From Pirellulales bacterium (GTDB lineage: Bacteria > Planctomycetota > Planctomycetia > Pirellulales > PALSA-1355), in NCBI GenBank assembly GCA_035496575.1, contig DATJEN010000143.1:19120-83119 (forward strand): a stretch of 64,000 bases of DNA, read 5' to 3'. Position 1 is the stretch's first letter, and the number at the start of each line of letters is the position of its first letter. Of the stretch, positions 47,668 through 64,000 are shown in pieces. Position numbers and translations under genes: made by a program. The notes beneath the pieces are model-generated. The model was not told the DNA's origin and made no database searches. It worked only from the letters and a program-made list of their open reading frames with translations.

Positions 47668-48786
47668 TCAGCGATACACGTGTTGGTCGCGCAGCAAACA
47701 GAAAAGTCGCCAGGGGGTTCGGGTGGCGTCTCGTAAAGCCGTCTCGCGGACCAGGTGTCGCGTAGACCGCCATAGCCGTCGCATACTGTGCGCGCCCGGA
47801 ACCCTATCCACGGCTCCCTCCGATACGGGAACCGTGCCGGTCATGAGGCTTTGCTTGAATCGCTCTGGGCCCGTGCCCAGGTCGATTCGTGTGACACCCA
47901 AACTCGGTGCAGCCTCAATGAGCTTCAGCAGCACCTGATAGCCCGGAGAATATCGCGCGAACGCCGGGTTGTAAGCCGTCGCCCAAAGGTGCAGCACGCC
48001 ATTTGATCGCATGCAATAGGTGGCTGCCAACAGCTCGTCGCCAACCCGTAATGCAGACACCATGCCGCACAATGCCTTGTCGCTGAACTCGATCAGGCGT
48101 CGAAATAATCGGTCGATCCACGAAATCGAAAAGTAGTCGATCACCAGGGTCCGGTGGCACTGTGTGCTCTTCCACGCCATCAACGATTTGAGCACGAACG
48201 GATCGGATGTATTGATTTCAAAATGCGCGCACCCGACTTCGCGTTCGAGCTTGCGCAGCTTTTGAAAGGATTGCTTGATGGCCTTTACGCCGGCGTCGTT
48301 TCGACTGGCGCAATATGATGCGAAGCCGGCCGACGTGTCAATGTACGGCGAATTTCGCACCGTCCATTCGTAAGGCTCAAAAGCGGACGCACGACGAGCA
48401 AGGTGATTGAAGTGCCACGCCGTCAGACCACAGCTCCGTAGCAGCCGCCGAGGGTCGACGGCGTATCCGGGTCGAATGATCATGCCGTGAAAATCGGACA
48501 TGCCGCACCCGACAGGATATCCCACGTGTCCCCAGCGTCGCTCGAAAGGAAAAAACGCGACTTCCCGGCCGTCCTCTTCGACAAACGCAACTTCGACGCC
48601 GCCGCGAATCTGGTCGACAACACGGGCGAATTCCGCTCGAAAAAAAGGACTGTCCAGACCGCCGTCGGCGGATTGGATCTTATTCCATGTGGATAACTGA
48701 TCGGCCGTAAGCTCCCTGAATGGGACGACCTCAATTCTCCCCGATCCCTGATTAATTCGAGAGTTGTGACTCAGAGTTGTCTTCAT
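47668..48786 (-). CDS. CelD/BcsL-like GNAT-fold acyltransferase (FemAB-like)
   Basis: 372 aa. …FRELTADQLSTWNKIQSADGGLDSPFFRAEFARVV…VAFFPFERR… shows the layout typical of CelD-type proteins in polysaccharide loci. Confidence 0.7.
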   Translation of the reverse strand: MKTTLSHNSRINQGSGRIEVVPFRELTADQLSTWNKIQSADGGLDSPFFRAEFARVVDQIRGGVEVAFVEEDGREVAFFPFERRWGHVGYPVGCGMSDFHGMIIRPGYAVDPRRLLRSCGLTAWHFNHLARRASAFEPYEWTVRNSPYIDTSAGFASYCASRNDAGVKAIKQSFQKLRKLEREVGCAHFEINTSDPFVLKSLMAWKSTQCHRTLVIDYFSISWIDRLFRRLIEFSDKALCGMVSALRVGDELLAATYCMRSNGVLHLWATAYNPAFARYSPGYQVLLKLIEAAPSLGVTRIDLGTGPERFKQSLMTGTVPVSEGAVDRVPGAHSMRRLWRSTRHLVRETALRDATRTPWRLFCLLRDQHVYR

Positions 48787-48917
48787 GAAATAAACGCACT
48801 TCGCCTGTTACCGCAAAAACAACCGAGACGACTTACGGGACTGAACAAATAGCCCAAGTAGCGAGGTGCGCTGGGTGCGACTCGGGAATCGCGACCCAGC
48901 ACCCCTCATGTCCACTG

Positions 48918-49910
48918 TCAGGCAACGACCGACGCGCGCTCCGCCAGATATTGCTCGCGAATCCACGCATATGTTTTGGCCATGCCGTCGCGTAGTCGAA
49001 TTGACGGCTCCCAGCCAAGGTATTTCTGGATTTTGGTGTTGTCGCTGTTGCGGCCATTGACTCCCTTGGGAGCGTCGAGCTGGTAGTTGCGCTCGAGCTT
49101 GACGCCGGCGATGTCTTCGACGAGATCCACCAATCCGTTGATCGTCACCAGCTCGCTTGAGCCGAGATTGATCGGCTCGAGGATGTCGCTGTCCATGATG
49201 GCATTGATGCCTTGGATGCAATCATCGATATACATAAAGCTGCGCGTCTGATTGCCGTCGCCCCAGATATCGATCGAATGGTCGCCGGTCTCGACGGCGT
49301 GGAGGACCTTGCGGCAGATGGCTGCCGGGGCCTTCTCGCGGCCGCCCTGCCACGTGCCGTTCGGCCCATACACGTTATGGAAGCGAGCGACACGGGTGGC
49401 GATTCCAAAATCTTCGCGGAAGTGCCGGCACATCCGCTCTGAAAAGAGTTTCTCCCAGCCGTATCCATCCTCGGGCATCGCCGGATACGCGTCTTCCTCC
49501 TTCAAGGCGGTGACTTGGTAATCTCGTTGTTTATCTGCGTTGTAGACACAGGCCGAGCTGGCGTAGAAGTAGCGTTGAACGCCGGCCTCCTTGGAAGCCA
49601 TGAGCAGATGAGTGTTGATCAGAACGGATAGCATGCACAGGCCTTTATTGTTCTCGATGAAGCCCATGCCGCCCATGTCGGCCGCCAGATTGAAAACGCG
49701 GTCCACACCGCGACAAGCCATCTCGCAAGCCTCCTTTTCTTGCAGGTCGGCGCAAATATTGTCGGCGCCGTCAAACACCTGATACCATTCGTCGAACGGC
49801 TTCACGTCTACTGCGCGAACATCGGAAAAGCCGCGGGCGAGCAGGTCGGCGACCAGGTGACCTCCGATGAAGCCACCCGCACCGGCCACGAGGACTGTAC
49901 GATTCGACAT
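48918..49910 (-). CDS. GDP-mannose 3,5-epimerase-like NAD-dependent epimerase
   Basis: Start MSNRTVLVAGAGGFIGGHL. Long blocks are nearly identical to plant GME as I recall it: VFNLAADMGGMGFI, FYASSACVY, RFHNVYGPNGTWQGGREKAPAAICRK, GDGNQTRSF, GVNGRNSDN. Confidence 0.85.
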   Translation of the reverse strand: MSNRTVLVAGAGGFIGGHLVADLLARGFSDVRAVDVKPFDEWYQVFDGADNICADLQEKEACEMACRGVDRVFNLAADMGGMGFIENNKGLCMLSVLINTHLLMASKEAGVQRYFYASSACVYNADKQRDYQVTALKEEDAYPAMPEDGYGWEKLFSERMCRHFREDFGIATRVARFHNVYGPNGTWQGGREKAPAAICRKVLHAVETGDHSIDIWGDGNQTRSFMYIDDCIQGINAIMDSDILEPINLGSSELVTINGLVDLVEDIAGVKLERNYQLDAPKGVNGRNSDNTKIQKYLGWEPSIRLRDGMAKTYAWIREQYLAERASVVA

Positions 49911-49996
49911 GATGATTCTTCCTTTCGTCGAGTAAGTGTTATTCAAGTTGCAGTTGAAATCAAAGTCTCGCTTGTCTCTTTGACGTCCGAAGCGCG

Positions 49997-50824
49997 TCAG
50001 GTCTGGCCATTGATGGTCGCGGGCGTCTTGGCTGGGCGGCCGAGCACCCGCTGGCGGAAGAGCTGCGCGGCCAGCTTCCGCAGGTAGATTGAGTTCGTCA
50101 CCAGATACCTCTTCCACAGCCGCTTCGGCTCCTGGTAAAGCCGAAACACCCAGGCCAGGCCGCGCCGCTGCATCCACAAGGGAGCAGGCGGCTTGGTGCC
50201 TGCCAGGAAATCAAACGCGGCCCCGACGCAGAGTTGCACCGGAATGATTCGATCTGCATGCTCAGCGGCAAAATGGTCTTGCTTCGGGCAACCCAGCCCG
50301 ACGAACATCAAGCCCGCGCCGCTGGCATTGACGCGCTCGACCATGGCCGCGTCCTCTTCGGGGGTTAGCCGGCGAAACGGAGGCGACTCGACATCGGCAA
50401 TGATGAGCCGCGGAAATTGCTCCTTCAGATTGCTCGCGAGTGCGGCAAGCGTCTCGGGTGAACTGCCATAGAGATAGATCGAGACGCCACTGGCGGCCGC
50501 CCGCTCGCAAAGCGCCAACGTCAGCTCGTAGCCTTGGAGTGTATTGCTGACGCGCGTGCCGTGTATCCAGTTGAGTGCCCAGCGGACCGGCTGACCGTCG
50601 GGAGCGACGATGGCAAAACGATTCACCTTCGTCGCCAGCTCGCGCGACGAGCAGGCTTCGATGAGGGCATGCACCGCAAAGGCGGACACCACGGCGGGAA
50701 TACGTCGCTCGGCGGCTTCGAGGATCGCGTCGGCCGCTTCGTCGCATGTTACGGCACTGACACCTACGCCGAACACATTATGCTTGGCAGGCCATTGGAG
50801 TGCTGTTGGATTGGCATCGATCAT
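49997..50824 (-). CDS. WecG/TagA/CpsF-family (GT26) glycosyltransferase
   Basis: …NVFGVGVSAVTCDEAADAIL…VSAFAVHALIEA…FAIVAPDGQPVRWAL…LYGSSPETL…GLGCPKQDHF…. Confidence 0.88.
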   Translation of the reverse strand: MIDANPTALQWPAKHNVFGVGVSAVTCDEAADAILEAAERRIPAVVSAFAVHALIEACSSRELATKVNRFAIVAPDGQPVRWALNWIHGTRVSNTLQGYELTLALCERAAASGVSIYLYGSSPETLAALASNLKEQFPRLIIADVESPPFRRLTPEEDAAMVERVNASGAGLMFVGLGCPKQDHFAAEHADRIIPVQLCVGAAFDFLAGTKPPAPLWMQRRGLAWVFRLYQEPKRLWKRYLVTNSIYLRKLAAQLFRQRVLGRPAKTPATINGQT

Positions 50825-50967
50825 GGTGTTGACACCTCGGGAAAGCTCGTAAGACCTACGATGTCCGGAGCAAAAGTTGCCTGGCAGTTACCGGCCGCGG
50901 GGGCTCTCAGTGTTTAACAACGGCTTCAAGAAGATGCGGCTAACATTTGTACGCCTTCCGAAAACTT

Positions 50968-52227
50968 CTAGGGAACGACTGCAATTGCGTTCTGGTTTGA
51001 TGTGACCAAGTTCGACGTCGATTCGGACGAACCAACACCATCTTTTCCACACAGCGATTCGTACACGGAGGCCGTCTGCGCAGCGAGCTTGCGCCAACTG
51101 TATTTCTTTTGGACAGCGAGCCAGCCTGCTTCTCCCAGCGATTGGCATTCCTGCGGGTCGGCAAGTAAGCGACAGAGCAATTTGGCCAGCTCGTCCGGGG
51201 ACTGTTCCGACAACCAGCCGTTGACACCTTCCTGCACGATGCTGGCCACTGGTGGAATTCGGCCACCAATAACTGCCTTCCGATGCGACCATGCCTCGAC
51301 GAAAACTCCGCCGAAGCTTTCCTGCACAGAAGGAACGCAAAGCAACTCGCAAGCAGCGATCGCGGAGGTTTTGGTTTCCAGGTCGACCTTTCCCAAGTTC
51401 ACCAAGCGCTCGTCACGACATCCTTCGAATATCTGCTTGGAATAGGGCGTAGGCGGGCCAATGAAGACAAAGCGAGTCCGTGGGTGCTTTAACCAGACCC
51501 GATCGGCAGCCTCGACGACCGCGGCAATGCCCTTGTATTTGACTTGCTGACCGACGAAGAGAACAAATGGCTCGTCAAGGTGGTACCGCCGACGAAAATC
51601 CGCTGCAGAGAACCGTTCTGACAGCACTGGGCCGATACCGGTCACGTGGATTCGCTCAGCACGCACGCCTTTCTGCTTTACGAGCAAATCTTTTTCTACT
51701 TCGGTCAGCGCGAAGATCGCATCCGCCGCGCGGTAGATCTTGTCATATTCTCGATACAGGGGGCCCCGCCAACGCTCGTGATGATTTGGCGTGAGTACAA
51801 AAGGAATCTGTCGAGTGCGAGCCATATCCAGCGCGGCGCGGGCCAAGAACTCGCGCCCAATGCGCGAGCAGTGTACGATTTCAGGTGTGCCTGCCTGAGC
51901 GGCAAGTTGTTCACGGATCACACTGGCGAGGTGCCGAACCGCCGGCTTCATGAACATGTAATATGTGGACGCCCACGGCAGCATTCTTAAACGCTGCGTA
52001 CGAGAAAACCCCAGCCGCGCCACCCGCACGTTTTCATGCACGAAGTTGGCAGGCGGTTCTCCGCAAACGGTGCTCAACCTTAGCCAATCTCGGCGGTTAG
52101 TCGTCGACTGCGTCACCACCTGCACTTCATGGCCGAGAGCTTGCATTTGCGCTGCCAGGCAGTGCAAGTGGATCTGCGCGCCCCCAACCGACGGCGGGTA
52201 CATCGTGCTCGTATAAAGAATTTTCAT
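50968..52227 (-). CDS. Glycosyltransferase family 4 (GT-B)
   Basis: MKILYTSTMYPPSVGGAQIHL… and PSVQESFGGVFVEAWSHRKAVIG (E-x7-E region). Confidence 0.9.
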   Translation of the reverse strand: MKILYTSTMYPPSVGGAQIHLHCLAAQMQALGHEVQVVTQSTTNRRDWLRLSTVCGEPPANFVHENVRVARLGFSRTQRLRMLPWASTYYMFMKPAVRHLASVIREQLAAQAGTPEIVHCSRIGREFLARAALDMARTRQIPFVLTPNHHERWRGPLYREYDKIYRAADAIFALTEVEKDLLVKQKGVRAERIHVTGIGPVLSERFSAADFRRRYHLDEPFVLFVGQQVKYKGIAAVVEAADRVWLKHPRTRFVFIGPPTPYSKQIFEGCRDERLVNLGKVDLETKTSAIAACELLCVPSVQESFGGVFVEAWSHRKAVIGGRIPPVASIVQEGVNGWLSEQSPDELAKLLCRLLADPQECQSLGEAGWLAVQKKYSWRKLAAQTASVYESLCGKDGVGSSESTSNLVTSNQNAIAVVP

Positions 52228-52259
52228 TTTGCGTCAAAAGCAAGCTATGTTTTTGCCCA

Positions 52260-53273
52260 TCAGGCGCGCGACAGCGACTCGGCAGCTGCATTTCCGCCGA
52301 GCAACTGGCGTTCTCCACGGAATTCGAGATATTCGCGGTAGACCTTCTGAGCGCACAATCGCGGCGCCAGATAGCGCAGCGCACACCGCATATAACCCTC
52401 AGCGCGCCACAATAAACATCGCCAACCCAGCTCCGCCGCTCGATCGCCCCGTAGCCGCGCGAACAACATGCGCCACAGGTTGACACCCATCGCTTGCATG
52501 AGTCGCGCACCCAAGATTGCGATCAGCATGAAAACTCCGCGGTGAGTTCGGTCACGTTCCGCCGTTGTCCAGCCATTGCGGCGAAAGACCCAGCGGAAGT
52601 AGGTTTCTCTTACGCGATACTCAGGAATGACATGGCGAACGATCGCGAGCGGCGCGTACCAGCCCGTTATTCCTGCCTGCAGCATGCGCAAAAACAGGTC
52701 GCTGTCTTCGCCGGCCTGCCGCAAGGATTCGTTGAATGTGCCGACTTCATCGAAGACGGTGCGCTCAACAAGCATGTTCCCAGTTCCGGGGAACATCTTG
52801 CGCGAATATTTCACTGGCTTGTCCGCGCCGATCGCTTCGCCCAGCAAGCGGCGACAGATTTCGGGCAGCGGCGGGGCCGTGGTAGGAAGCAACAGGTGCA
52901 CAGCGCCCCCCACACAGCGCGCTTTTTCTTTGCGGACCATCTCCAACAGCTCGCGTAGCCAGTTGGGATCGGCCACTTGGTCATCGTCGAAAAAGGCCAC
53001 ATAGCGTCCGCGCGCTTCGGCCACGCCGCGGTTGCGCGCGCAAGCGACGCCCGGCTTGGGCTCGTAGACGCCCCGGAAGGGAACCTTCGCCTCGCGCGCG
53101 ACGTCGGCGACAACCTCCACCGTGGCGTCGGTCGATGCATTGTCGACGACGATCACTTCGTAGCGCCATGATGCGTCGGTCTCGAGCCCCAACAGACTCG
53201 CCAACGCGCCGCGCAGCATCTCGGCGCGGTTGTACGTGCAGATCACAACCGATACGTCAATCTCGTACGTCAT
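52260..53273 (-). CDS. Glycosyltransferase family 2
   Basis: MTYEIDVSVVICTYNRAEML…VVDNASTD…FFDDDQV (DxD). The start ATG overlaps the stop of the upstream gene (ATGA). Confidence 0.9.
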   Translation of the reverse strand: MTYEIDVSVVICTYNRAEMLRGALASLLGLETDASWRYEVIVVDNASTDATVEVVADVAREAKVPFRGVYEPKPGVACARNRGVAEARGRYVAFFDDDQVADPNWLRELLEMVRKEKARCVGGAVHLLLPTTAPPLPEICRRLLGEAIGADKPVKYSRKMFPGTGNMLVERTVFDEVGTFNESLRQAGEDSDLFLRMLQAGITGWYAPLAIVRHVIPEYRVRETYFRWVFRRNGWTTAERDRTHRGVFMLIAILGARLMQAMGVNLWRMLFARLRGDRAAELGWRCLLWRAEGYMRCALRYLAPRLCAQKVYREYLEFRGERQLLGGNAAAESLSRA

Positions 53274-54664
53274 GTGACTATTCCTTCGCGATAGCACCAG
53301 GGCAACTCGGAGGGAATTCCGCGAACCACGGGCAACACGGGGACGCTCTGCGCACGGTCCTCTTCACCCGCACCGAACGGCAATTGAAACATGGCGCACA
53401 GTGTCACCAGGGCAATGAACGACGGTTGGAGCAGGTCGGACTCGGTGAACGCGTTGACTGCGGCAAAGGTGACGAGCGCCAGCAGCAAGCCGTAGCCGGG
53501 ATCCAGCGTGCGGCGATAACGGGCGGCGAAGCGGCCGATTGCCAAGCTGAGCGTAACCGCGAGCATCCCAACCCCGATGAGCCCCGCGGCGATCACCGCG
53601 TCCACATAGGTTGAGTGTGCGTCGGGGATGGGCCAGTAAAAGATCTTCGAAAAATCCTCGGTTCGTTCCGGATCCCAGAACGCCCCGTAGCCATAGCCGG
53701 CCCAGGGTCGTTCCGTGGCGAAATCTAAAAGCTCGGTCCACAGAGGCAAGCGGCCGGTGAGCGACTCGGACTCGTCGGTGCGACCCATAAGTGCGGCTTG
53801 AACCACAGTTTGTTCAACGCTGGTGCCGGAGAGCTCGATGGCAACCGCAGCGGCGCAGGCCGCCATGCCAGCCGCCAGAGCCCAGGGAAGCGCTCGCCGG
53901 CCAGGCACGATCAACCACGACAGAAGAAGAGCCGCCAACAACGCCACCAGCGCCGTACGCGACCTGGTGAGTAGCAGCCCGCACGCCCCAGCGCCGATTG
54001 CGACACCCAACAGCAGGCGATGCGCCGAGCCGCTGCGCAAAAGCGCCAGTGCCGCCAAACACAAGAAACTACAACTAACCGCCAAGTTGTTAGGATGCAC
54101 CATGCCCGCAAAACGGTAACCTTCGGACCAGGGGCGGAAGTGCCCGGTCGCCAGCTCGATCGCGAACGCAAAAGCCAGGTAGGTCGCCGTGAGGGCAACG
54201 AGGGCGCGGGCGAAAGCCAGCGCCGCGAGCTGACGGGCCAGTCCGAGTGCGGCCAGAAATACGCACAAAAGAGTCGTGATGCGCCGTGCCGTCAGATCCG
54301 ATTCGACCGACCAGAAAAGACTCGCCGTGTACCAGGCGAAGAGCCCGCCGCAGGCCAATAGGACAGGGTCGCGCCAATTGAGAGGACGGCCGCGGCCTTG
54401 CAGGCACAAGCAGCCGCCCAACACCCCCAGCGCCAGAAAAGCGACGCGCCTTACGGAGCTGCCCTGCTCGATCGATTCGGCCCGCTCGTCCATCGCGTAG
54501 ATCGCATCATCCGAGAACTCGGCCTCCAAGAACCGCGGATCCTGGTCGATCGCGAAAAACGCAATCCCCAAGAGGATGACCGGCAGCCACGTGCGCAATT
54601 GCCACTCGTCGGCTCCGTGTGGGCGGTTGTAGCTGTCAATCGAAAGGTGGTTCGAGTAGTTCAT
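53270..54664 (-). CDS. O-antigen ligase/polymerase-like (Wzy_C) membrane protein
   Basis: 464 aa with about 10-12 TM segments and a large loop carrying the …HPNNLA… / …HSTYVDAVIAAG… type motifs. Confidence 0.8.
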   Translation of the reverse strand: MNYSNHLSIDSYNRPHGADEWQLRTWLPVILLGIAFFAIDQDPRFLEAEFSDDAIYAMDERAESIEQGSSVRRVAFLALGVLGGCLCLQGRGRPLNWRDPVLLACGGLFAWYTASLFWSVESDLTARRITTLLCVFLAALGLARQLAALAFARALVALTATYLAFAFAIELATGHFRPWSEGYRFAGMVHPNNLAVSCSFLCLAALALLRSGSAHRLLLGVAIGAGACGLLLTRSRTALVALLAALLLSWLIVPGRRALPWALAAGMAACAAAVAIELSGTSVEQTVVQAALMGRTDESESLTGRLPLWTELLDFATERPWAGYGYGAFWDPERTEDFSKIFYWPIPDAHSTYVDAVIAAGLIGVGMLAVTLSLAIGRFAARYRRTLDPGYGLLLALVTFAAVNAFTESDLLQPSFIALVTLCAMFQLPFGAGEEDRAQSVPVLPVVRGIPSELPWCYREGIVT

Positions 54665-54668
54665 AGGC

Positions 54669-56057
54669 TCAAGCGGAAAGGCTGTGCGAATTCAACTGAA
54701 TTTGTTCGTCCGAATGCAAAACGAGCGTCTCCCGGGCGGACTCAAACACTCGCACGAGCGTCGCCGTGCGCACGACCGCCGCCGTCGATGTCCCCGCCAG
54801 TGATGCCAGCGCGGCGCCCAGGGCGCCATACGAGGGGACCAGGAACGCAGCAGCCACGACCGTTACAATGAGACCGCAGAAATCCGCTACAAAATTCGCG
54901 CGCGGCTGCTCGAGCGCCCACAGTCCATTGCCGGCGACCATTCCCATCGCGGTCATCAGGGCACTGAGGCCAAGACAGACCAGAATGGCGCCGGAGTCAC
55001 GGAACAGTTCCCCGTACAGAAACACAGCCAGGGAACCGCCCGCCACGAGCAGCACGAGCGAAAAAGTGCCCAACAAGAGGGCTAAGAACGAGGCCGCGAG
55101 TACGAGCACTCGGCGCAGCTCTTGGGTGCCACCGAGGACGAAAGCTTGTGCTGCGCGCGGGGTCAGCACGCGATCGACGCCCCCTTGCAGCACATTGGAA
55201 AGTCCCACCAGCGTGGCGCACGCGCCGAACATTCCCACGGCCGCCGGGCCGGCGGCCAGACCGAGAATCCAGGGCATGATGTACGGGGTCGTATTGCCGA
55301 CCAGGTAACTGCGCAGGGCCCACTTTCCAAACGACCAATTGTGCTTCCAGTCGGCAAAAAATCGCTGCCGCGATAGCCGCGCGTTGGGCGGGTCGAACAC
55401 AAACCAGCTCAACGCAGCCAACGCACACGCCCCGCCCATGACGCCGTAAATAGTGAAGATCGAAAGGCCGCCGTAGCGGGCCAAAAGCAGCAGACCGCTG
55501 CATTGCGCGGCAGCGACGACGAGATCGACGCCGATCGCCGATACGATGTGCAAGTTGGCCAGCGCGAAACGACGGATTCCCTCGCGCAGCAGGAGCAAAG
55601 GCCCCGCTCCCGCCAGTGCCCACAGGCCTGGCACGATCAGCCCGCCGCCGGCCAGGGACAAGAGGGCGATCGTGCCCAACAGGACGATCAATCCCACAGT
55701 GGTCAACGCCACGTGGTGCAAGAAGGCGCTGCCGGCGTACTCGGTCAGGTCGTGTCCGCTGCGTCGCTTGGAGTAGATCGTATAGGGAGCGGCAACCAGA
55801 TGCTCCTGAATCCCGGTGGCGACGATGATGATGCTCAGAATCAGGTAGTACAGACCGACCTGGTCAGGCGAGATCGTGCGATTGATGATGATGGCGGTGA
55901 CGAGGCTCGTGCCACTCACTACTGCCTGATCGAAAATCGACAGCAGTCCGTCCCAGGCCAACGGAAAGCGCCGGCCCAATTCGAGCAACCGTCCCCTCAC
56001 CAATGCGCCCGCAACCGCGCCACGCACATCGGGGATTTCAATAAGGTCGGATTTCAT
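54669..56057 (-). CDS. Polysaccharide flippase (Wzx/MOP superfamily)
   Basis: Polytopic, 12 or more TM segments. I prefer the start MKSDLIEIPD… at 56057 to the track start at 56270. Confidence 0.8.
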   Translation of the reverse strand: MKSDLIEIPDVRGAVAGALVRGRLLELGRRFPLAWDGLLSIFDQAVVSGTSLVTAIIINRTISPDQVGLYYLILSIIIVATGIQEHLVAAPYTIYSKRRSGHDLTEYAGSAFLHHVALTTVGLIVLLGTIALLSLAGGGLIVPGLWALAGAGPLLLLREGIRRFALANLHIVSAIGVDLVVAAAQCSGLLLLARYGGLSIFTIYGVMGGACALAALSWFVFDPPNARLSRQRFFADWKHNWSFGKWALRSYLVGNTTPYIMPWILGLAAGPAAVGMFGACATLVGLSNVLQGGVDRVLTPRAAQAFVLGGTQELRRVLVLAASFLALLLGTFSLVLLVAGGSLAVFLYGELFRDSGAILVCLGLSALMTAMGMVAGNGLWALEQPRANFVADFCGLIVTVVAAAFLVPSYGALGAALASLAGTSTAAVVRTATLVRVFESARETLVLHSDEQIQLNSHSLSA

Positions 56058-56095
56058 ATGTGATTCCGAGTTCGAATTGCGAACAGTCGACTCGG

Positions 56096-57064
56096 TTAGA
56101 GACAAGACAATTGAGACTGTCGGGTCGCGTGTCGTTTCGGCAATCGCATGAACCGCTTGATGGGACGGGTGAGGACTTGCCGCGCCTTGACGGCGGTCGT
56201 GTACCAGCCGGTAAGCATCGACGCTAGGACCTCGGGTGTGTCGTCCGCGTCGACTTGAAAGCGTCCCCACTGGAATGGATCATCCTCGATCATGGCGCGC
56301 TGCGGACGCGTGGAGAACGAGCAGGCCACGCCGGCTCGCCGGGCCGATTCAATCAACGGGGGCGTGATCTCACCGAAGGGAAAGGCGAACGCGGGGTGTG
56401 CAATCCCGAAGCGGTCGCGCAACACGTCGAGACATTGCTTTAAGTCGCGCTCGAACTGTTCGCGTCGCCCGGCGAACCGCTCATGGGTATGGGTATGCGC
56501 GCCCAGATCGACCAGCCCCTCGGCCAGGATGGCGCGGCATTCGTCGGTCGAGAGCGGCCGCCAGCACTCGGCAGGTACGCGCGGTGAACCTGCCGCCGAC
56601 CAATCGTCGAACGGAAACGGGGTGTCGCCGTCCAGGTACTTGGTGGCCACAAAAATCGTGGCGGGAATGTTCAGCTCTCGCAGGACGGGGTATGCGCCCG
56701 AGTAATTGTTCTGATATCCGTCATCGAAGGTGACGGCAAAAACGTGCGAGGGCACCCGCTGTGAATTACGATGAGCGGCCACCAGCCTCGAGAGGGACCA
56801 CGCCTGGAAGCCGCGCTCGAGCAGCCCGGCCAATTGGACCCGCAACCGGTCGGGAGTCACGTTCCACGTGGGAACATCGACGCCCGGCACGTGGTCGCAA
56901 ACGCGATGGTACATCAGGATGCCGAACTTCTCATCCGGCCGCGCGCCAAACATGGCGTGCAACCTGGCGGCCAGCCGGCCGGTGCTTCGCGTGCTCATAC
57001 GCCGCAAGCCGTCCAGGGGAGCGTACTGGCGCGCCGTCCGAAATATGCCACGGTTGTCGTCCAT
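56096..57064 (-). CDS. Polysaccharide deacetylase (NodB/CE4) family protein
   Basis: …ILMYHRV…VTFDDGYQNNY…PATIFV…GAHTHTH… I prefer the start at 57064. Confidence 0.85.
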   Translation of the reverse strand: MDDNRGIFRTARQYAPLDGLRRMSTRSTGRLAARLHAMFGARPDEKFGILMYHRVCDHVPGVDVPTWNVTPDRLRVQLAGLLERGFQAWSLSRLVAAHRNSQRVPSHVFAVTFDDGYQNNYSGAYPVLRELNIPATIFVATKYLDGDTPFPFDDWSAAGSPRVPAECWRPLSTDECRAILAEGLVDLGAHTHTHERFAGRREQFERDLKQCLDVLRDRFGIAHPAFAFPFGEITPPLIESARRAGVACSFSTRPQRAMIEDDPFQWGRFQVDADDTPEVLASMLTGWYTTAVKARQVLTRPIKRFMRLPKRHATRQSQLSCL

Positions 57065-57098
57065 AGATGTTTCCCCGCGCTGCGCACAGCCGCGATGT

Positions 57099-58166
57099 TC
57101 AACAGGCGCCGCGGCGAAGCAACACGGCCGGCATGGTCTGGGCAATCAACTTGACGTCGTTGATCAGCGAGCGCGACCGGATGTATTCAATATCCATGCG
57201 GATCCAGTCGCAGAACGAGACGGCCGAACGGCCGCGCACTTGCCAGATGCACGTCAATCCGGAGGTGACGTCGAGGCGGCGGAGCTGCCATTGTTCGCAG
57301 CGGTCGGACTCGTCGCACGGCAAGGGCCGCGGACCCACCACAGACATGTCTCCGAGCAATACATTGACGAGCTGCGGCAGTTCGTCAATGCTCGTTTTCC
57401 GCAGGAATCGACCCAACGCCGTCACGCGTGGATCTTTTGCGAGCTTGAACGCGGGGCCGTCCTGCTCGCTGAATCTCAAAAGCGCCGTCTTGCGCTGTTC
57501 GGCATTGGCGGCCATGGTGCGGAACTTATACATCATGAATTTGCGCCCGCCGATCGTGTGCCGACGCTGCTTAAAGATGACGGGGCCAGGCGAAGTGAGC
57601 TTGATCGCCACGGCGACGGCCAGCAACAAAGGAGCGGCCAATACCAGGGCCACACTCGCGCCGATCACGTCGATGGCACGTTTCCAGGCGGGCATCGGGC
57701 GAACGAACAATGTGTGCATGGGCCGAGAAATGCGGTCTTCCTCGGGCTGCTCCGCTTCTTCACCAACCAATACTTCTTCCGGCTGCTCGTCGCTGGGATA
57801 CGCGAACACCTCGCATTTTGGCCGGGGCAGCTCGTGCGGCATCAGCTCACACAGGTCATCTGCCAATTTCCAAGCGCCGGCCACTGGCGTCTCGGGAAGG
57901 ATGACGCCAATCGCGCGGGCGCTCCAGATTCCGGCGTCATCCGTGATCCGCAGCCGATCCCGCAGCGTGCGCGCAATCGCCGTCAGGTTGGAATCGCTCA
58001 GGCGCGCGGAGAACGTGAGTGTCAGCAGCGAAAAACTAGCGTTCCCACGGTCACAGCGCATGCGTTCACGTTCGAGCAAGGCCTGCAGGCGCTCGGCCGA
58101 TTGCAGAAAATCACTTGCACACTTCAACTGCGGCCTGCGCCAGCTATCGAGCATTCTTCGAATCAT
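57099..58166 (-). CDS. Priming polyprenyl-phosphate sugar-phosphate transferase (Bac_transf) with an N-terminal degenerate GGDEF-like domain
   Basis: The C-terminal part reads …KRAIDVIGASVALVLAAPLLL…FKQRRHTIGGRKFMMYKFRTM…DPRVTALGRFLRKTSIDELPQLVNVLLGDMSVVGPRP. The N-terminal 130 aa read …RERMRCDRGNASFSLLTLTF…LRDRLRITDDAGIWSARAIGVILPETPVAGAWKLADDL. Confidence 0.85.
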   Translation of the reverse strand: MIRRMLDSWRRPQLKCASDFLQSAERLQALLERERMRCDRGNASFSLLTLTFSARLSDSNLTAIARTLRDRLRITDDAGIWSARAIGVILPETPVAGAWKLADDLCELMPHELPRPKCEVFAYPSDEQPEEVLVGEEAEQPEEDRISRPMHTLFVRPMPAWKRAIDVIGASVALVLAAPLLLAVAVAIKLTSPGPVIFKQRRHTIGGRKFMMYKFRTMAANAEQRKTALLRFSEQDGPAFKLAKDPRVTALGRFLRKTSIDELPQLVNVLLGDMSVVGPRPLPCDESDRCEQWQLRRLDVTSGLTCIWQVRGRSAVSFCDWIRMDIEYIRSRSLINDVKLIAQTMPAVLLRRGAC

Positions 58167-58290: not shown

Positions 58291-58965
58291 TTAGAGCCTC
58301 GATGCGAGCCAACCGGGTAAGTGTTGCGGACGTTTGTTGAGGATGGCTCCCAGAACATTCGCTTGCGCATGAACCAAGTGCTCTCGTGCCTGGGCTGCCG
58401 CCTGCGCGTGTGTCCGCTCTGCTTCCATGACGAGCACAACTCCGTGGAGCAGGCCCGCCGTGGCGATGCAGAACTCGGAGTTCGCGGTCGGCAGGTCGAC
58501 CACGATGAAGCTGAAGTCGGATTCCAACGTACTTAGAAGATCACGCAGATCGTCGCGATTGAGCTGGCCGATCGCATCGTTGCGCCGGCTGTCGACCACC
58601 AGCCGCGACAGGTTGCCAATCGACGTGAGCTCAACCTGTTCCGCTAAGGGCAACAAGCCGTCCGGCGATTGCGACAAGCGACCCGCGACCGACCAAGACC
58701 ATCCGACCGCCGCCCGACTCAAGTCGAAAAGCAACACCGGTTGGTCGCCGGCCTGCGCTGCCGCAGTCGCCAGCTGCTGGGCCACCGTACTTACGCCGGC
58801 GCCCGGGCTGCAGCTTGTAATCCCCACGATCCGCGCGCCCTCGGGCGCCGCGCCGGCCGGGCTGCGCAGCCAATGGGCCATGGCGTAGTACTGTGCGGCG
58901 ACGGGAACGATACGGCCGGCGCGCGCCGCCGAGGTACGGATTTGTTCTTCAGTTAACGTAATCAT
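58291..58965 (-). CDS. CpsD/CapB-type (BY-kinase-like) P-loop ATPase domain protein, degenerate Walker A
   Basis: …ARIVGITSCSPGAGVSTVAQQLATAAAQAGDQPVLLFDLS…FSFIVVDLP…VVLVMEAERT… The fold pattern matches MinD/BY-kinase, but the Walker-A Lys is Val and there is no C-terminal Tyr cluster. Confidence 0.75.
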   Translation of the reverse strand: MITLTEEQIRTSAARAGRIVPVAAQYYAMAHWLRSPAGAAPEGARIVGITSCSPGAGVSTVAQQLATAAAQAGDQPVLLFDLSRAAVGWSWSVAGRLSQSPDGLLPLAEQVELTSIGNLSRLVVDSRRNDAIGQLNRDDLRDLLSTLESDFSFIVVDLPTANSEFCIATAGLLHGVVLVMEAERTHAQAAAQAREHLVHAQANVLGAILNKRPQHLPGWLASRL

Positions 58966-58976
58966 CCCGATGGCCC

Positions 58977-60536
58977 TTAGTTGTGCAGTAATTCCTGACG
59001 AGCCCCGCGCGGAACGGAAAACAACACGGGAACACCCAGCTCGTGCTCAACCTGCTCGGGCGTCTTCAATGATGGATCAAAGAATTCGGCCAAGAACGCC
59101 ACGCAAACGGCACCAAGTAATGCGAACAGCACGCCACCGGCCAACACGATGCGCGTCATCGGGCTGGCAGGCTGGCCTACCAGCGAAGCCGGCTGCACCA
59201 CGTTCACGTTCGAAATGCGGCCCACTTCCAGAGCCTGGTCGATGCGAGCTTGCTCGCGGTTGTTCGCATAGTCGCGATAGTTGGCCTCGAGCAGCTCCAC
59301 CTTGCGGTTGAGTTGCGCAATGTGATATTCGTTGTCGTTCATGCCGCGAATGCGATGCTCGATCGCCGCGCGTTGAGCCTGCAACGACTTGGCCTCGGCC
59401 CGATAAGCGGCTGCCTCGGCCTTGGCGCTCAGCAAGTCGTTGTGAACGCCCTGGTGGACGGGGCTCAGCCTTCGTGTCTGTTGATTGTGGCGCGGCTCTT
59501 GCCCCGCGAGGATCTTTTCCATTTCAGCCACTTGCCGCCTCAAGACGATCACGTGAGGATGCTCGGCAGTGCCCCGCGAGCTGGCTTCTTTCTCCTGGAT
59601 TTGCAGCTTGTACAGCTCGTTCCGCATGGCATCCGCCGCGGCGCTCGGCACGTCCGTGTCCTCGGCGACCAACTGGGGAGGCAGCTCCTTAAGCGCGTCG
59701 CTCAAAGCCGCGATCTTCGCTTCCGAAGACGCCAAAGCTCGTTCGTTCGCCAGTACCGCAAGCTCAAGCGCATTGGCCTGGGATTGCACGTTTTCCTGCT
59801 GGCCGTTGATCGAAACCAACATCGTCTTGTTCTTCGCGTCGCGGAGTTCCTGGGTTGCCGTTTCCAGCTGCTGGCGAAGCAAATTCGACTGTTCCACGAA
59901 AAAGTCAAACGATCCCGACGTACGGTTGGCCTTCGCATGTCGCACCATGTACGCATCGAGGTAAGCCTGCAGCAGTTGCTGGGCTTTCTCGGGCCGCTTG
60001 GCGGTGCATTTGATGAAGATCACGTTCGACTTACGCGGCGATGTAACCGTCAACGACTTCTCAAACTTGTTGACAGCCCGCTCTCGATCGGTGATCCCGC
60101 CATTAAGCCACGTGCGTGCGATCGCCAACGGCGCCGTCACGGTGTCGAACCAGGTGGGCTCCTGGCCGGCGTTATTGTTGAGCACCAGATCGGCGCCCAG
60201 ACGATCGACTACGTCTTCATACAGCGCGCGGCTACGCAGAATCTCCAGCTCGGAATTAATTTCGTGCTCGCGCGAACCCTCGATGTCGACGTTCTGGCTC
60301 AAGTTGGCGGTCGGATCGAGCGAAACGCTTTCTTTTCCCATGCGGACAAACAAGCGCGCGTCGGAGATGTAAGTGCGCGGCCACGCGATCAGGCCCACGA
60401 CCACCAGCGCACAAGTGCCGAGGAAGAATGCGGCCATCTTGCCCTTATGCCGGAACAGCACGCGACAGATGTCGCGAACGCTTGAATTCGGTCGATGGGG
60501 GGGCTGATTTCCGTTGGAAGGGGTGCGTGTGACCAT
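58977..60536 (-). CDS. Polysaccharide chain-length determinant / co-polymerase (GumC/Wzz, PCP family)
   Basis: An N-terminal TM segment (MAAFFLGTCALVVVGLIAW), a long coiled-coil periplasmic region, and a C-terminal TM segment (IVLAGGVLFALLGAVCVAFLAEF). Confidence 0.85.
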   Translation of the reverse strand: MVTRTPSNGNQPPHRPNSSVRDICRVLFRHKGKMAAFFLGTCALVVVGLIAWPRTYISDARLFVRMGKESVSLDPTANLSQNVDIEGSREHEINSELEILRSRALYEDVVDRLGADLVLNNNAGQEPTWFDTVTAPLAIARTWLNGGITDRERAVNKFEKSLTVTSPRKSNVIFIKCTAKRPEKAQQLLQAYLDAYMVRHAKANRTSGSFDFFVEQSNLLRQQLETATQELRDAKNKTMLVSINGQQENVQSQANALELAVLANERALASSEAKIAALSDALKELPPQLVAEDTDVPSAAADAMRNELYKLQIQEKEASSRGTAEHPHVIVLRRQVAEMEKILAGQEPRHNQQTRRLSPVHQGVHNDLLSAKAEAAAYRAEAKSLQAQRAAIEHRIRGMNDNEYHIAQLNRKVELLEANYRDYANNREQARIDQALEVGRISNVNVVQPASLVGQPASPMTRIVLAGGVLFALLGAVCVAFLAEFFDPSLKTPEQVEHELGVPVLFSVPRGARQELLHN

Positions 60537-60676
60537 GCTTCACCTCGTTGGTTGCAGGCGCGCCAAAGCTGAGTTCAGCCCATTCTAGTCGGCCTATTAA
60601 TCCCACTACGGACTGTATGTGGGAGCTGTAGGGAGGCTCAGGTGAAGAGCGTCGCTCGCACAATCCGCAAGCGCGC

Positions 60677-61546
60677 TCAACTTGGCAACTGCGGCAGATC
60701 GAACTCGCCGGAGTCCATCCAACTCGGATGCAGCACGGTCCAGAAATCGGTCGCCAAATGCTCCTCAACAAAGGCATAGGGCAGCCATCCGTAGCCGGCT
60801 TGCCCCCATTGCGCGCCCCACGAGCTGCGCACTAAAAGCGCGCCGCGCGAACCGCGCAGCCAGCGGTCGTCATATCCGGCGGCGATCACGGCTTGCCCGC
60901 CGAGGACCGAATCAAAGGTCGGCCGATAAGGAATGTCGCCGTCGAGCGTGAGCGAGCTGGGCACCGAAAATCCGAATACGGTTGGAAAACCCGCCGCCAA
61001 AAACGCGCGCACCGTTTGTAGCGTCACGTCCGGCGAAGTCCCCCGCGCGTCCAGCCGCACATAGATGAGTGAGCGGTATGGTTCCGTAAACGAGTATAAG
61101 AAAGGGTCGGTCGCCGCCTCCGCTCGCTGCTCGTCGTAAGGCCACAGCCGTTCTGGCGGCGCGCCGAACCGCACAAGTGTCTTTAATCCCGTGCGCAGAT
61201 CGACGCCGGCTTGCCCGCTCGCGCCCGAGAATCGCAGCGCATTTTGGTGCAAAAAGAGGCGGGACGGCCGCAGCAGGCGGCCATGGGCGCGGCGTTCGAA
61301 GTATTCGACCAGCCCGGCGCACGCGTGGGCAACCGAGCTATTCAGGTCGTGCTGGTCCGGAACATCGACGAAGTATTCGCGCAGGTCCGCGCTCGAGGTT
61401 GCTTGCGCGGTATTCGCGCCCACCGACCGCAGCCGCTCCAACAATTGCTGGACTTCGGGCTCGCTCGGCAGATAGTCGCGAAAATCGGGCAAGCTGGGCA
61501 GCCAACCGAATCCGCGAGGCTCAAAAAGTGCCATGCTGCGACTCAC
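60677..61546 (-). CDS. Papain-like (C1 family) fold protein lacking the catalytic triad (pseudo-peptidase)
   Basis: LPSLPDFRDYLP…DLREYF…VPDQHDLNSSVAHACAGLVEYF…GGQAVIAAGYDD…LLVRSSWGAQWGQAGYGWLPYAF is colinear with bacterial C1 peptidases. Cys, His and Asn are replaced by Ser, Gln and Ser. Confidence 0.7.
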   Translation of the reverse strand: MSRSMALFEPRGFGWLPSLPDFRDYLPSEPEVQQLLERLRSVGANTAQATSSADLREYFVDVPDQHDLNSSVAHACAGLVEYFERRAHGRLLRPSRLFLHQNALRFSGASGQAGVDLRTGLKTLVRFGAPPERLWPYDEQRAEAATDPFLYSFTEPYRSLIYVRLDARGTSPDVTLQTVRAFLAAGFPTVFGFSVPSSLTLDGDIPYRPTFDSVLGGQAVIAAGYDDRWLRGSRGALLVRSSWGAQWGQAGYGWLPYAFVEEHLATDFWTVLHPSWMDSGEFDLPQLPS

Positions 61547-61721
61547 GAGGGACCCTGACGAGCGTGGACCCTGTGAATGCCCCTACCGCACTCTGGGCAT
61601 GGAGCACGGTTCCCCCCCACCACGCGCGAAATCTGCACCGCCTCGCCCAGCATAGCGCGACTTTGACGGTACAAACAAGGTGAGCAAAGGGGGAATACTG
61701 GGGACTAGCGGACCAGGACAC

Positions 61722-62477
61722 CTAGGTGCGAACCGCTCCATCGGTCGTCGCGGCGGTTGAATCGCTGCGCAATTCCCAGCGAATTCCTTCCCCGGTCCCG
61801 TCGCCCATGAATCGCACGAGCATGCGCTTCTGTTTGCGATTGAGCGCTTTGATCGTATCGTGCAATCGCCTGCGGGAGTCGATCTCCGGAACCGGTGGAA
61901 GCGGATCGTCGATGCGGGGCGGCCAGCTCTCTTCCTCGAACGCCATCAGCACGGTTTCTTGATTCGGCGACGGCAGCTTGAATTCCTTGACGACTTCGTT
62001 CCCGACGCGAAGTTGTCGGCGCTGTTGGTCCCACTTCAACCCAGGCCCGTCAATCGATCCACGCGCATTAGAAGCTTGAGCGGAAGTCGATTGTGCCGCT
62101 GGGGCGAGCGTGGCTTCGCGCGCCAGGGCAACCCCAGTTTCGGTCAAAATGAAACACAAATCGCGCTCGGGTCGCAGGAGCGCTGTGTGTCGAAAGCGCC
62201 GCGCGGAGTCGTGCGACGTGCTGATCTCGATGGCGTGCGCGACGTAGCCCTTGGCCGCTAACCACCGCAGGTCGCTATGCGTCAACCTGGCATCACGCAG
62301 CACCTCGATCTCAACCGCCATATCCCACGCAGATTGGCCGAGCTCCGATGCGTATTCAAACGCCTGCAGTAAAAGCCCAAGCGCTTCGCGCAAGTGAGCC
62401 TTGACATCTGGAGCGGCAGGTGGCCCGGCGCTGGCGGGCGGTGGCTCAAGGGCGGCGATTAGCTCGCTGGTCTGCAT
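61722..62477 (-). CDS. Uncharacterised protein, paralogue A of a divergent pair
   Basis: 251 aa. It shares colinear motifs with 62826..63566: …SDLRWLA…, …LCFIL…, …WD..R..LR.GN.V.K.F..P..N/D.ET.L.AFEE..WP…, …LNR…. Confidence 0.7.
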   Translation of the reverse strand: MQTSELIAALEPPPASAGPPAAPDVKAHLREALGLLLQAFEYASELGQSAWDMAVEIEVLRDARLTHSDLRWLAAKGYVAHAIEISTSHDSARRFRHTALLRPERDLCFILTETGVALAREATLAPAAQSTSAQASNARGSIDGPGLKWDQQRRQLRVGNEVVKEFKLPSPNQETVLMAFEEESWPPRIDDPLPPVPEIDSRRRLHDTIKALNRKQKRMLVRFMGDGTGEGIRWELRSDSTAATTDGAVRT

Positions 62478-62647
62478 GTGGTCGGAGGCGGGAGTGCTCG
62501 TGCAGCTGTGGGGAATGATTGCGGCCGGCCGGGTGCCGGCAAGGGGGTTGGCTGCCTAGAAAAGATAGACCAAATAGTCTATTTATTCCAACCAGATTGC
62601 CAAAAACACGCAATTTTCTACTTAAATTGGGGGATTATTAAGTTGTT

Positions 62648-62825: not shown

Positions 62826-63566
62826 ATGGAAGCGATGGAAGTCGTCACAGCACTGGGTGTGGCACCCCCCGATGCTGTCATTCCCGCTGAACGGCTGCCA
62901 TCTGAAGTTCCGCCTTCGATCGCACCGGGTCTTCATGCGCTGGTTGAGGCGAACCGATACGCCCGTGAGCTCGGCCTAAACGCCTGGAATTTCGCCGTCG
63001 AGGTTAGCTACCTGCGGCACCTGGGACTATCGAACAGCGATCTTCGCTGGCTGGCGTCGGTTCACGCTGTCGAGTATGCCGTCGAGACCACGAAGTCCGA
63101 TTCGTTCGAACGCGCGTTTCGCCGCATGGGGCGACTGACCATCTCGCGGCGGCTGTGCTTCATCTTGTCCCCGCCCGGCGCACTATGGGGCGAGCATCTG
63201 GTGAAGATCGCCGAAAAGCGCGTAGCGCGCAAAGCGCGGAAGGCCGTCGCGCAGGCGCGGCCCGCCGCACAACCGCAGCCCGCTCAAATTCTTCCGCCAG
63301 TTTGGGATCGTAACCGGTTGGAACTCCGCCTTGGTAACAACGTTCTGAAGCGATTCACTGTTCCATCGTGCGATGCGGAAACAATTCTGACTGCCTTCGA
63401 AGAGAGCGGCTGGCCGAAGCAGCTACAGAATCCGCTTGATGATTCGATGTCTTGTGCGGTCGAGCGATTGCTATCGGCGGTCGAAATCCTGAATCGGCAG
63501 CGCCTTCGGCTAGTCCACTTCGAGCTGCAGCCGGACGAGTTAAAAATCGCTTGGAAGTGCGAGTAA
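62826..63566 (+). CDS. Uncharacterised protein, paralogue B of a divergent pair
   Basis: 246 aa, colinear with 61722..62477 (see that entry). Confidence 0.7.
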   Translation: MEAMEVVTALGVAPPDAVIPAERLPSEVPPSIAPGLHALVEANRYARELGLNAWNFAVEVSYLRHLGLSNSDLRWLASVHAVEYAVETTKSDSFERAFRRMGRLTISRRLCFILSPPGALWGEHLVKIAEKRVARKARKAVAQARPAAQPQPAQILPPVWDRNRLELRLGNNVLKRFTVPSCDAETILTAFEESGWPKQLQNPLDDSMSCAVERLLSAVEILNRQRLRLVHFELQPDELKIAWKCE

Positions 63567-63601: not shown

Positions 63602-64000
63602 TCACGGAATAAGCGTCGACATGCCGGCGCCAAGCTGGTAGAAGCCGTTGATCGGCGCAACGCCGTAGATGCCTCGAGTGAAGACCAGGTCGATGAAGTT
63701 GTCGGCCCGCAGAATCTTCGACTTGGGCACGATGATCAGATCCGCATCGCTGACCCAGATCTCGCTCGCCGGGCATGGGCGCTTACCCAACAAGGCGGGC
63801 CGCAAGTCGAGCACGGTGGCAATCAACCGCCAGTCGTCAGCCCGGCGGAATACGACCACATGCGTGATTTGCCCGCCCACAGTCCAGCTTCCCGCCATGC
63901 TGATCGCCTGCATCACCGTCGTGGGCGCTTCCAAGGTATAGCGCCCGGGAGCCTTCACTTCACCCAACACGTAGACATATCGCGGAGCCCGCTGCTTGAG
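63602..64000 (-). CDS. Polysaccharide export protein (Wza/SLBB family), C-terminal part; gene continues beyond the right edge
   Basis: The frame is open to position 64000 (…LKQRAPRYVYVLGEVKAPGRYTLEAPTTVMQAISMAGSWT…VVVFRR…IIVPKS…). V.V.GEV..PG.Y plus a soluble-ligand-binding beta-grasp pattern. Confidence 0.8.
   Translation of the reverse strand, partial: LKQRAPRYVYVLGEVKAPGRYTLEAPTTVMQAISMAGSWTVGGQITHVVVFRRADDWRLIATVLDLRPALLGKRPCPASEIWVSDADLIIVPKSKILRADNFIDLVFTRGIYGVAPINGFYQLGAGMSTLIP

Follow-up and report, generated by a model that had tools for sequence, protein, structure and literature searches.

Gene model and fold of the pseudo-peptidase

We analyzed a 64,000-nucleotide stretch of DNA from a Pirellulales bacterium of the phylum Planctomycetota (GenBank assembly GCA_035496575.1, contig DATJEN010000143.1, positions 19,120 to 83,119; hereafter the window), and in it a gene predicted to encode a papain-fold protein whose catalytic residues have been replaced. 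This gene, here called the pseudo-peptidase gene, is surrounded by a minus-strand polysaccharide cluster of the Wzx/Wzy type. The cluster runs in the order Wza-like export protein, hyp246 (on the opposite strand), hyp251, pseudo-peptidase, Wzz/GNVR chain-length determinant, bacterial tyrosine kinase (BY-kinase)-like protein, initiating transferase (Bac_transf), deacetylase, Wzx, and Wzy, and beyond Wzy it holds glycosyltransferases of families 2 and 4 (GT2 and GT4), an epimerase, and an Acetyltransf_6 protein (Table 1). The pseudo-peptidase open reading frame (ORF) on the minus strand encodes 289 amino acids when counted from a GTG; an ATG at 61532-61534, four codons inside the ORF, gives a protein of 285 amino acids that starts MALFEP. 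Both this length and this start match nearly all of 120 listed homologues, and the ATG at 61534 is probably the true start rather than the GTG, because 285 amino acids is the length of most homologues. The GC content by codon position (0.67/0.51/0.73, in a window of 62% GC) backs this frame over the many ORFs that overlap it.

The profile search left the family assignment weak: Pfam Peptidase_C1 (PF00112) aligned to residues 210-253 only, with a score of 17.2 bits against a gathering score of 20.7, and NCBIfam gave no match for the protein. A phmmer search against the Protein Data Bank (PDB) found xylellain of Xylella fastidiosa (3OIS) with an E value of 3e-27 over residues 11-271. The AlphaFold2 model (predicted local distance difference test score 92.7, predicted template modeling score 0.92) contains both the L and the R domain of the papain fold; Foldseek again ranked 3OIS first (E 8.7e-19, TM scores 0.73/0.79), followed by Legionella Lpg2622 and then by procathepsins K, L, S, and H and papain, all with a probability of 1.00. 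Since the Peptidase_C1 score lies below threshold, homology is carried by the 3OIS match and the fold. An N-terminal GW..P.PD.RD segment and a C-terminal W.D(S/T)G.F tail are kept both in the homologues that share the replacements (the substituted clade) and in those that retain the catalytic residues (the active homologues). Hydropathy analysis showed no hydrophobic N-terminus, signal peptide, or transmembrane segment (maximum of 1.34 on the Kyte-Doolittle scale with a 19-residue window); the sequence-only reading that preceded this work had likewise seen no signal peptide. By alignment and model, the protein is a full-length papain-fold member of the xylellain-type C1A peptidases, predicted from its residues to be non-proteolytic.

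Replacement of the catalytic residues

In the alignment with 3OIS, the nucleophile motif reads DQHDLNSSVAHA in the pseudo-peptidase and DQGRIGSCTANA in xylellain, the histidine motif GGQAV instead of GGHAV, and the asparagine motif RSSWG instead of RNSWG. All three residues by which peptidase family C1A is catalytically defined are therefore changed: Cys25 to Ser71, His159 to Gln218, and Asn175 to Ser241. In a MAFFT alignment that includes 58 homologues taken from GTDB species genomes of other phyla, bacterial and archaeal, these three columns are Cys, His, and Asn in 100% of the 58, which secures the register. A weak alignment with procathepsin L slips by two residues, and anchoring it on the GY motif, six residues after the His/Gln position, restores the pairing of Gln218 with the catalytic His. 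Other parts of the active site are retained: Gln65, equivalent to the oxyanion-hole Gln19, and the cleft tryptophans Trp243 and Trp247, equivalent to Trp177 and Trp181, are invariant.

Two residues near Ser71 were considered as relocated catalytic residues, and both were rejected. His74, at the position of Cys plus three, is not specific to the clade, alternates with Asn in active homologues, and is variable. Cys76 lies five residues further along the helix and was judged, without coordinates, to sit off the cleft face; active homologues have Gly in this column (88%). Cys76 (codon 61319-61321, minus strand) is the sole cysteine of the protein and is kept in approximately 80 to 90% of the substituted clade.

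The substitutions themselves had been proposed in the sequence-only reading, and the 3OIS alignment and the cross-phylum alignment bear them out. The Pfam profile to which that reading looked for the register scored below threshold; the register held through the other two alignments.

Conservation and selection across the clade

Conservation was assessed in 121 sequences, consisting of the query and its 120 best cluster representatives (52-96% identity). An intact Cys-His dyad occurs in none of them. The two positions read Ser/Gln in 115, Ala/His in 2, Cys/Gln in 2 (P0101 and P0117), Ser/Thr in 1, and Ala/Gln in 1, so that Ser occupies the nucleophile position in 116 (96%) and Gln the histidine position in 118 (98%). 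The proposed Ser-Gln-Ser signature holds at its first two positions; the third divides between Ser (69 sequences) and Asn (50), and within the clade it can be Asn, Ser, Phe, Thr, or Pro.

A second sample was taken from GTDB species, as the best 80 of approximately 586 hits, and comprised 23 substituted and 57 active loci. All 23 substituted sequences are Planctomycetota records. With the three catalytic columns removed, these sequences and the query form a single clade in 49 of 50 neighbor-joining bootstraps. Pairwise ratios of nonsynonymous to synonymous substitution (dN/dS) among nine orthologues range from 0.06 to 0.32; synonymous sites are saturated, so these values give the direction of selection only. 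Among syntenic orthologues the pseudo-peptidase is 63-67% identical, at least as conserved as the initiating transferase and more so than Wzz, the kinase-like protein, the deacetylase, and the flippase.

Comparison of the two groups showed which constraints have been lifted. Active and substituted homologues have 63 conserved columns in common, Gln65, Trp243, and Trp247 among them, in agreement with the earlier impression of a well-preserved scaffold. A further 30 are conserved in the active clade only, and many of these lie around the nucleophile (Gly69, Ser70, Thr72, Gly76, and Asn241). This combination of relaxed nucleophile surroundings and 63 retained columns is what would be expected had the catalytic constraint been dropped while the fold and other surfaces were still needed.

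The codons for Ser71 carry further information. They are of the TCN family in 15 loci of the clade and of the AGY family in 9; each family is one step from the Cys codons TGY, and there is no one-step path between TCN and AGY. Together with the rare Cys/Gln members, the two codon families suggest that His was replaced by Gln first and that Cys then changed to Ser repeatedly, or else that Ser was held through a switch of codon family. As both families encode Ser71, the pattern points to selection for Ser itself at this position, beyond mere tolerance.

By sequence, then, this is a pseudoenzyme, a homologue of an enzyme family that appears to have lost its catalytic residues and to have been kept under purifying selection. 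The idea that the gene is selected for a non-proteolytic function, put forward from one sequence, is now strongly supported by the Ser/Gln count, monophyly, dN/dS below 1, conservation equal to or above that of catalytic neighbors, and linkage to exopolysaccharide (EPS) genes (see below). Public sources label family members P0003 to P0120 "C1A family cysteine protease," "C1 family peptidase," or "cysteine protease." Because none of the 121 sequences has an intact Cys-His dyad, these names are almost certainly wrong for the substituted clade and likely reflect a systematic misannotation; "non-peptidase homologue," xylellain-type C1A by descent, should be the fitting name.

Gene neighborhood

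Table 1. Positions within the 64,000-nucleotide window of the pseudo-peptidase gene, its active-site codons, the flanking conserved blocks, and the neighboring genes.
Feature	Position	Strand	Basis or remark
Pseudo-peptidase gene, predicted xylellain-type C1A papain fold	60677..61546	-	Sequence and model; Ser71, Gln218, and Ser241 replace Cys, His, and Asn
Gln65, codon CAG, retained equivalent of oxyanion-hole Gln19	61352..61354	-	Invariant in 121 homologues
Ser71, codon TCG, at the catalytic Cys25 position	61334..61336	-	Alignment
Gln218, codon CAA, at the catalytic His159 position	60893..60895	-	Alignment
Ser241, codon AGC, at the Asn175 position; Asn or Ser across the clade	60824..60826	-	Alignment
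Conserved block upstream of the pseudo-peptidase gene	61647..61705	-	TTCCCC..TCACCTTG, -35-like TTGTTT, 18 nt, TATGCT; promoter-like
Conserved block in the spacer that separates the pseudo-peptidase stop codon from wzz	60581..60649	-	ATTCMCC..CACAGCTCCCACAYA..CCGTTG..TAGAAT; promoter/operator-like
Wza-like outer-membrane export protein, C-terminal part, SLBB	63602..63970	-	Gene runs past the window end
hyp246, divergently transcribed paralogue of hyp251 (33% identity)	62826..63566	+	Sequence
hyp251, 251 aa, two predicted winged-helix-like domains; directly upstream, same strand	61722..62477	-	Sequence and model
Wzz/GumC-like polysaccharide co-polymerase, PCP-2 type; two transmembrane segments, 32-residue cytoplasmic C-terminal tail	58977..60536	-	Sequence
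Stand-alone BY-kinase homologue (BY pseudokinase)	58291..58965	-	Walker A Lys to Val; no C-terminal Tyr cluster
Initiating polyprenyl-phosphate sugar-phosphate transferase (Bac_transf)	57099..58166	-	Profile match
Deacetylase, Wzx flippase, Wzy polymerase, GT2, GT4, epimerase/dehydratase, Acetyltransf_6	47668..57145	-	Rest of the EPS cluster

The order hyp251, pseudo-peptidase, Wzz, kinase-like protein, and transferase recurs in seven loci (L001-L005, L015, and L053), where it continues, as in the window, into the deacetylase and Wzx/Wzy; the lowest identity at which it is still seen is 44% (L053). The same order, with two Wza genes ahead, appears in L081, a metagenomic contig whose genes were called independently; there hyp251 and the pseudo-peptidase gene lie between wza and wzz, and the kinase-like orthologue lies between Wzz and the transferase. 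L082 has the order minus the BY-kinase-like gene.

Adjacency to Wzz was found in 11 of 23 substituted loci and in 0 of 57 active homologues (Fisher P = 1.3e-7), with Wzz downstream on the same strand or, in L010-L013, divergent upstream. For hyp251 the corresponding counts are 14 of 23 and 0 of 57 (Fisher P = 5e-10), and clustering of the neighbors of active homologues revealed no recurrent gene context. Linkage to EPS genes is thus specific to the substituted clade and, with an adjacent Wzz in 11 of the 23 loci, not universal. More divergent members often lie beside other genes of polysaccharide or cyclic di-GMP metabolism: a CapD-like gene in L010, a WecG/TagA glycosyltransferase gene in L014, and polyprenyl synthetase and GGDEF genes in L009. 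The most constant neighbor is hyp251, ahead of Wzz; it is present without an adjacent Wzz in L007, L008, L017, L018, L019, and L048. A sub-clade (L010-L014, L016, and L046) lacks an adjacent hyp251, and several of its members still adjoin Wzz or other polysaccharide genes. Conservation of the gene's place in related EPS loci, which the sequence-only reading had proposed to check, thus extends to Wzz in 11 of the 23 loci; in the window Wzz begins 140 bp downstream, directly next to the pseudo-peptidase gene as first described. The more constant neighbor, hyp251, does not figure in that reading.

Spacers and conserved noncoding blocks

The pseudo-peptidase gene is set apart from its neighbors by 187 bp upstream and by the 140 bp to wzz downstream; in other genomes these spacers measure 141-364 bp. 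Each contains a conserved block (Table 1). The upstream block is shared by L001, L002, L004, L005, L015, and L081, the downstream block by L001-L005, L015, L081, and L082, and both contain a TTCCCC element and persist across genomes that are saturated at synonymous sites. Profiles of the blocks also matched loci outside those from which they were built: nhmmer found the upstream block 5' of the homologue in L009 (E 0.039), and the downstream block was found in L006 after the homologue, where the next gene is the sugar transferase (E 0.005). We read the two blocks as putative conserved promoters or operators. Neither motif recurs elsewhere in the window beyond chance, and no regulon can be defined from the window. 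No terminator-like site was seen on the minus strand between hyp251, the pseudo-peptidase gene, and wzz; an Rfam search of 56000-64000 returned nothing at E ≤ 0.1, and a repeat search of 60500-62900 gave short, chance-level repeats only. The divergent intergenic region of hyp251 and hyp246 (62576-62674) has one sigma-70-like site per strand, by consensus match only; that on the plus strand, TTGACA-16-TATCAT, fits 11 of 12 consensus positions.

The gene had been described as embedded in an EPS operon. Its position in an EPS locus stands, on the minus strand; an operon is not established, because the spacers hold conserved promoter-like blocks. From the sequences, what we see is a conserved gene order that appears to have its own control points.

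Neighboring proteins

The kinase-like protein aligns with Staphylococcus aureus CapB (E about 1e-8), but its Walker A motif reads ITSCSPGAGVST against ITSEAPGAGKST in CapB, with Lys changed to Val (GAGVST), and its C-terminus, LPGWLASRL, has no tyrosine cluster and follows a conserved tail pattern, LPxWLxxRL. All eight kinase-like orthologues (L001-L005, L015, L053, and L081) have Val, Ala, or Gly at the Walker A Lys position and lack the Tyr tail. By sequence the protein matches the BY-pseudokinase/PCP-2 subfamily of EcpK and HfsB, and the Wzz-like protein, with its two transmembrane segments and 32-residue cytoplasmic tail, has the form that the BY-pseudokinase/PCP-2 model expects.

Neither hyp251 nor hyp246 matched Pfam, NCBIfam, or PDB sequences; for hyp251, 40 family members (E ≤ 1) and 10 longer relatives gave no Pfam match either, and a family profile searched against PDB sequences returned nothing. 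The AlphaFold2 model of hyp251 (predicted local distance difference test score 83.7) consists of two helix-helix-helix-hairpin domains, and all of its top Foldseek matches are MarR-type or other winged-helix regulators, with probabilities up to 0.97 and weak E values of at least 0.016. The family has 5,827 representatives at 50% identity (1,635 at E ≤ 1e-30) and is planctomycetal in the loci and source names seen. A putative DNA-binding regulator is a reasonable description of hyp251 from its model, and hyp251 and hyp246 probably represent an undescribed regulator family. An OmpR/PhoB-type domain, suggested by inspection of the model, was not supported, hhalign against the C-terminal domain of Escherichia coli PhoB giving a probability of 0.1.

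The N-terminal region of Bac_transf, approximately 160 amino acids (57690-58166, minus strand), resembles a degenerate GGDEF domain by eye, but the match is not significant (E = 0.13, no Pfam match). It seems to keep an RxxD site, RITD....SARAI against RQSD....GGEEF of 3IGN, and true GGDEF genes adjoin the cluster in L009 and L082. Two further products are encoded outside the EPS cluster, at 40397-44924: one, of 1,074 amino acids, carries a PcRGLX-like beta-sandwich domain of the rhamnogalacturonan lyase type, and the other is a bacterial type IB topoisomerase (Topoisom_I and Top1B_N_bact).

Proposed role and alternatives

We consider it probable, with appreciable room for doubt, that the pseudo-peptidase is a cytoplasmic, non-catalytic scaffold or regulatory subunit of the EPS pathway. 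It would descend from the widespread, short, signal-peptide-less cysteine peptidases of the xylellain type and would have lost the Cys-His dyad once, early in the Planctomycetota, with purifying selection since, acting also on Ser71 and Gln218 themselves. We infer that it performs no cleavage and acts by binding partners within the Wzx/Wzy pathway. The likeliest of these would be hyp251, the cytoplasmic face of a bipartite, phosphorylation-independent PCP-2 made of Wzz and the BY pseudokinase, or both. A cytoplasmic location is predicted because there is no signal peptide, because a protein with a single Cys cannot form the disulfides typical of secreted papains, and because the architecture is that of the signal-less active family. 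In the cleft, the Ser-Gln pair, Gln65, and the tryptophans would form an uncharged polar groove for a peptide tail or a phosphate- or sugar-bearing ligand.

Several points weigh against this interpretation. About a third of the clade sits in other or unannotatable contexts (L007, L019, L031, L046, and L048), and spacers of 140-360 bp with conserved promoter-like blocks separate the gene from both neighbors, leaving co-transcription unproven; interaction with any partner is something we infer. The N-terminal segment of xylellain is reported to block the cleft. If so, and as the segment is conserved in the pseudo-peptidase, the protein may fill its own cleft and leave no room there for a partner, and another surface may then be the functional one. 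Finally, Cys-to-Ser variants of the papain family can keep some activity, though His is retained in them (PMC10318531).

A more specific version of the same proposal, which we regard as rather doubtful, would make the protein a third cytoplasmic component of phosphorylation-independent PCP-2 machines, supplying an assembly/disassembly switch and perhaps relaying its state to the winged-helix-like neighbor. The switch could work by clamping the PCP cytoplasmic tail in the dead cleft, or by sensing a nucleotide or nucleotide sugar at an extra-catalytic site: xylellain reportedly binds a ribonucleotide outside its active site.

Alternatively, the pseudo-peptidase may be mainly the partner of a hyp251-type protein in a two-gene regulatory module, its link to EPS being secondary and arising through control of EPS loci in Pirellulales; we think this unlikely, although it deserves to be taken seriously. 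It would account for the constancy of hyp251, including the six loci without an adjacent Wzz, and for the promoter/operator-like blocks that flank the pseudo-peptidase gene; the two winged-helix-like domains with their regulator matches and the size of the hyp251 family, which fits a family of paralogous regulators, are also in its favor. However, the Foldseek E values are weak and Pfam, PDB-sequence, and hhalign comparisons gave no DNA-binding family, several members of the sub-clade without an adjacent hyp251 still lie by Wzz or polysaccharide genes, and in L081 both genes sit between wza and wzz.

It is improbable that the protein is still an enzyme, with Ser71 as nucleophile and an unconventional base, carrying out hydrolysis or acyl transfer on a peptide or on a polysaccharide- or lipid-linked intermediate. 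Silicatein and SERA-type proteins do use Ser. Ser71 is conserved in 116 of 121 sequences through two codon families, Gln65 is invariant, and Cys-to-Ser proteins of the papain family can remain active (PMC10318531). Yet the general base is gone, with Gln218 in 118 of 121; His74 is variable and not specific to the clade, residues beside the nucleophile have lost the invariance seen in active homologues, the third triad position is not constant, and Cys-to-Ser and His-to-Gln alleles of HvyA, a related case discussed below, are null (PMC4241560).

A decaying, functionless protease remnant beside EPS genes by chance, as the loss of all three catalytic residues and the sub-threshold Pfam score might suggest, is a reading that the conservation data in effect refute. 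More than 120 cluster representatives at 52-96% identity have uninterrupted ORFs of constant length, dN/dS is well under 1, 63 scaffold columns are shared with active homologues, synteny is clade-specific (P ≤ 1e-7), and the upstream noncoding blocks are conserved.

Significance

Pseudoenzymes are a familiar idea, and BY pseudokinases are already known to scaffold PCP-2 proteins (PMC12004946). What is new is a clade-wide pseudo-peptidase with a conserved association to the PCP/pseudokinase pair across Planctomycetota, a second and unrelated dead enzyme at that place, from a parent family, the xylellain-type C1A peptidases, itself without known physiological function. Were it a subunit or regulator, it would add a new part to models of polysaccharide assembly, open a way into EPS control in a phylum that has received little study, and serve as a natural experiment on binding by the xylellain scaffold; its weight would be greater if it were the missing control element of phosphorylation-independent PCP-2 machines. 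A practical consequence is that peptidase names in public records almost certainly need correction for the substituted clade.

Comparison with known systems

The closest solved relative by sequence and by fold is xylellain, with which the pseudo-peptidase shares a length of about 285 amino acids, the GW..P.PD.RD segment, the papain core, the W.D(S/T)G.F tail, and the absence of a signal peptide. Xylellain and the 58 sampled non-planctomycete homologues have Cys/His/Asn, whereas the Planctomycetota clade has Ser/Gln/(Ser or Asn); unlike the substituted clade, active xylellain-type members have no conserved gene neighborhood, and their substrate is not known (PMC12090721).

Ser at the Cys25 position of a papain fold is also found in silicatein, in Plasmodium proteins of the SERA5 type, and in C25S mutants of cathepsins. 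These homologues keep His; the pseudo-peptidase clade has Gln in 98%, so there is no Ser-His dyad, and it is bacterial, predicted to be cytoplasmic, and encoded in a polysaccharide locus. C25S cathepsins can still hold peptides in the cleft, as in 7Q8G, which is among the Foldseek matches of the pseudo-peptidase.

HvyA of Caulobacter crescentus, a transglutaminase-like cysteine protease in a capsule export locus (PMC4241560), is likewise a papain-superfamily protein encoded in a Wzx/Wzy-type locus, and it controls polysaccharide production rather than making the polymer. HvyA differs in being transglutaminase-like and not C1A, in being periplasmic with a Sec signal, and in its dependence on a Cys-His-Asp triad. 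Alleles engineered to carry C192S or H226Q are non-functional (PMC4241560), and these same types of substitution, Cys to Ser and His to Gln, are the natural state in the pseudo-peptidase.

Bacterial protease homologues that have lost catalytic residues include CspA and CspC of Clostridioides difficile, subtilisin-like pseudoproteases retained for a regulatory role (PMC7200643). They resemble the pseudo-peptidase in being kept for a non-proteolytic role and differ in protease clan, in the residues lost, and in serving spore germination.

Literature searches found no papain-like or pseudo-peptidase component described in planctomycete or other EPS loci. The nearest functional parallels are HvyA and the BY pseudokinases EcpK of Myxococcus (EcpK/EpsV) and HfsB of Caulobacter (HfsB/HfsA). 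The pseudokinases scaffold PCP-2 proteins that have no kinase domain; how such phosphorylation-independent machines cycle was left open by the authors (PMC12004946). EcpK and HfsB have a P-loop ATPase fold, and no papain-like component is described for their systems in that paper, in which the word "peptidase" does not appear (PMC12004946); unlike EcpK, the kinase-like protein of the window still has a recognizable Walker B Asp and most of the glycines of the Walker A pattern. The likeness is that of catalytically dead enzyme homologues serving as cytoplasmic PCP-2 scaffolds in Wzx/Wzy pathways, and the genes that follow the pseudo-peptidase gene encode a similar pair, a Wzz-like PCP and a BY-kinase homologue that lacks both the Walker A Lys and the Tyr tail.

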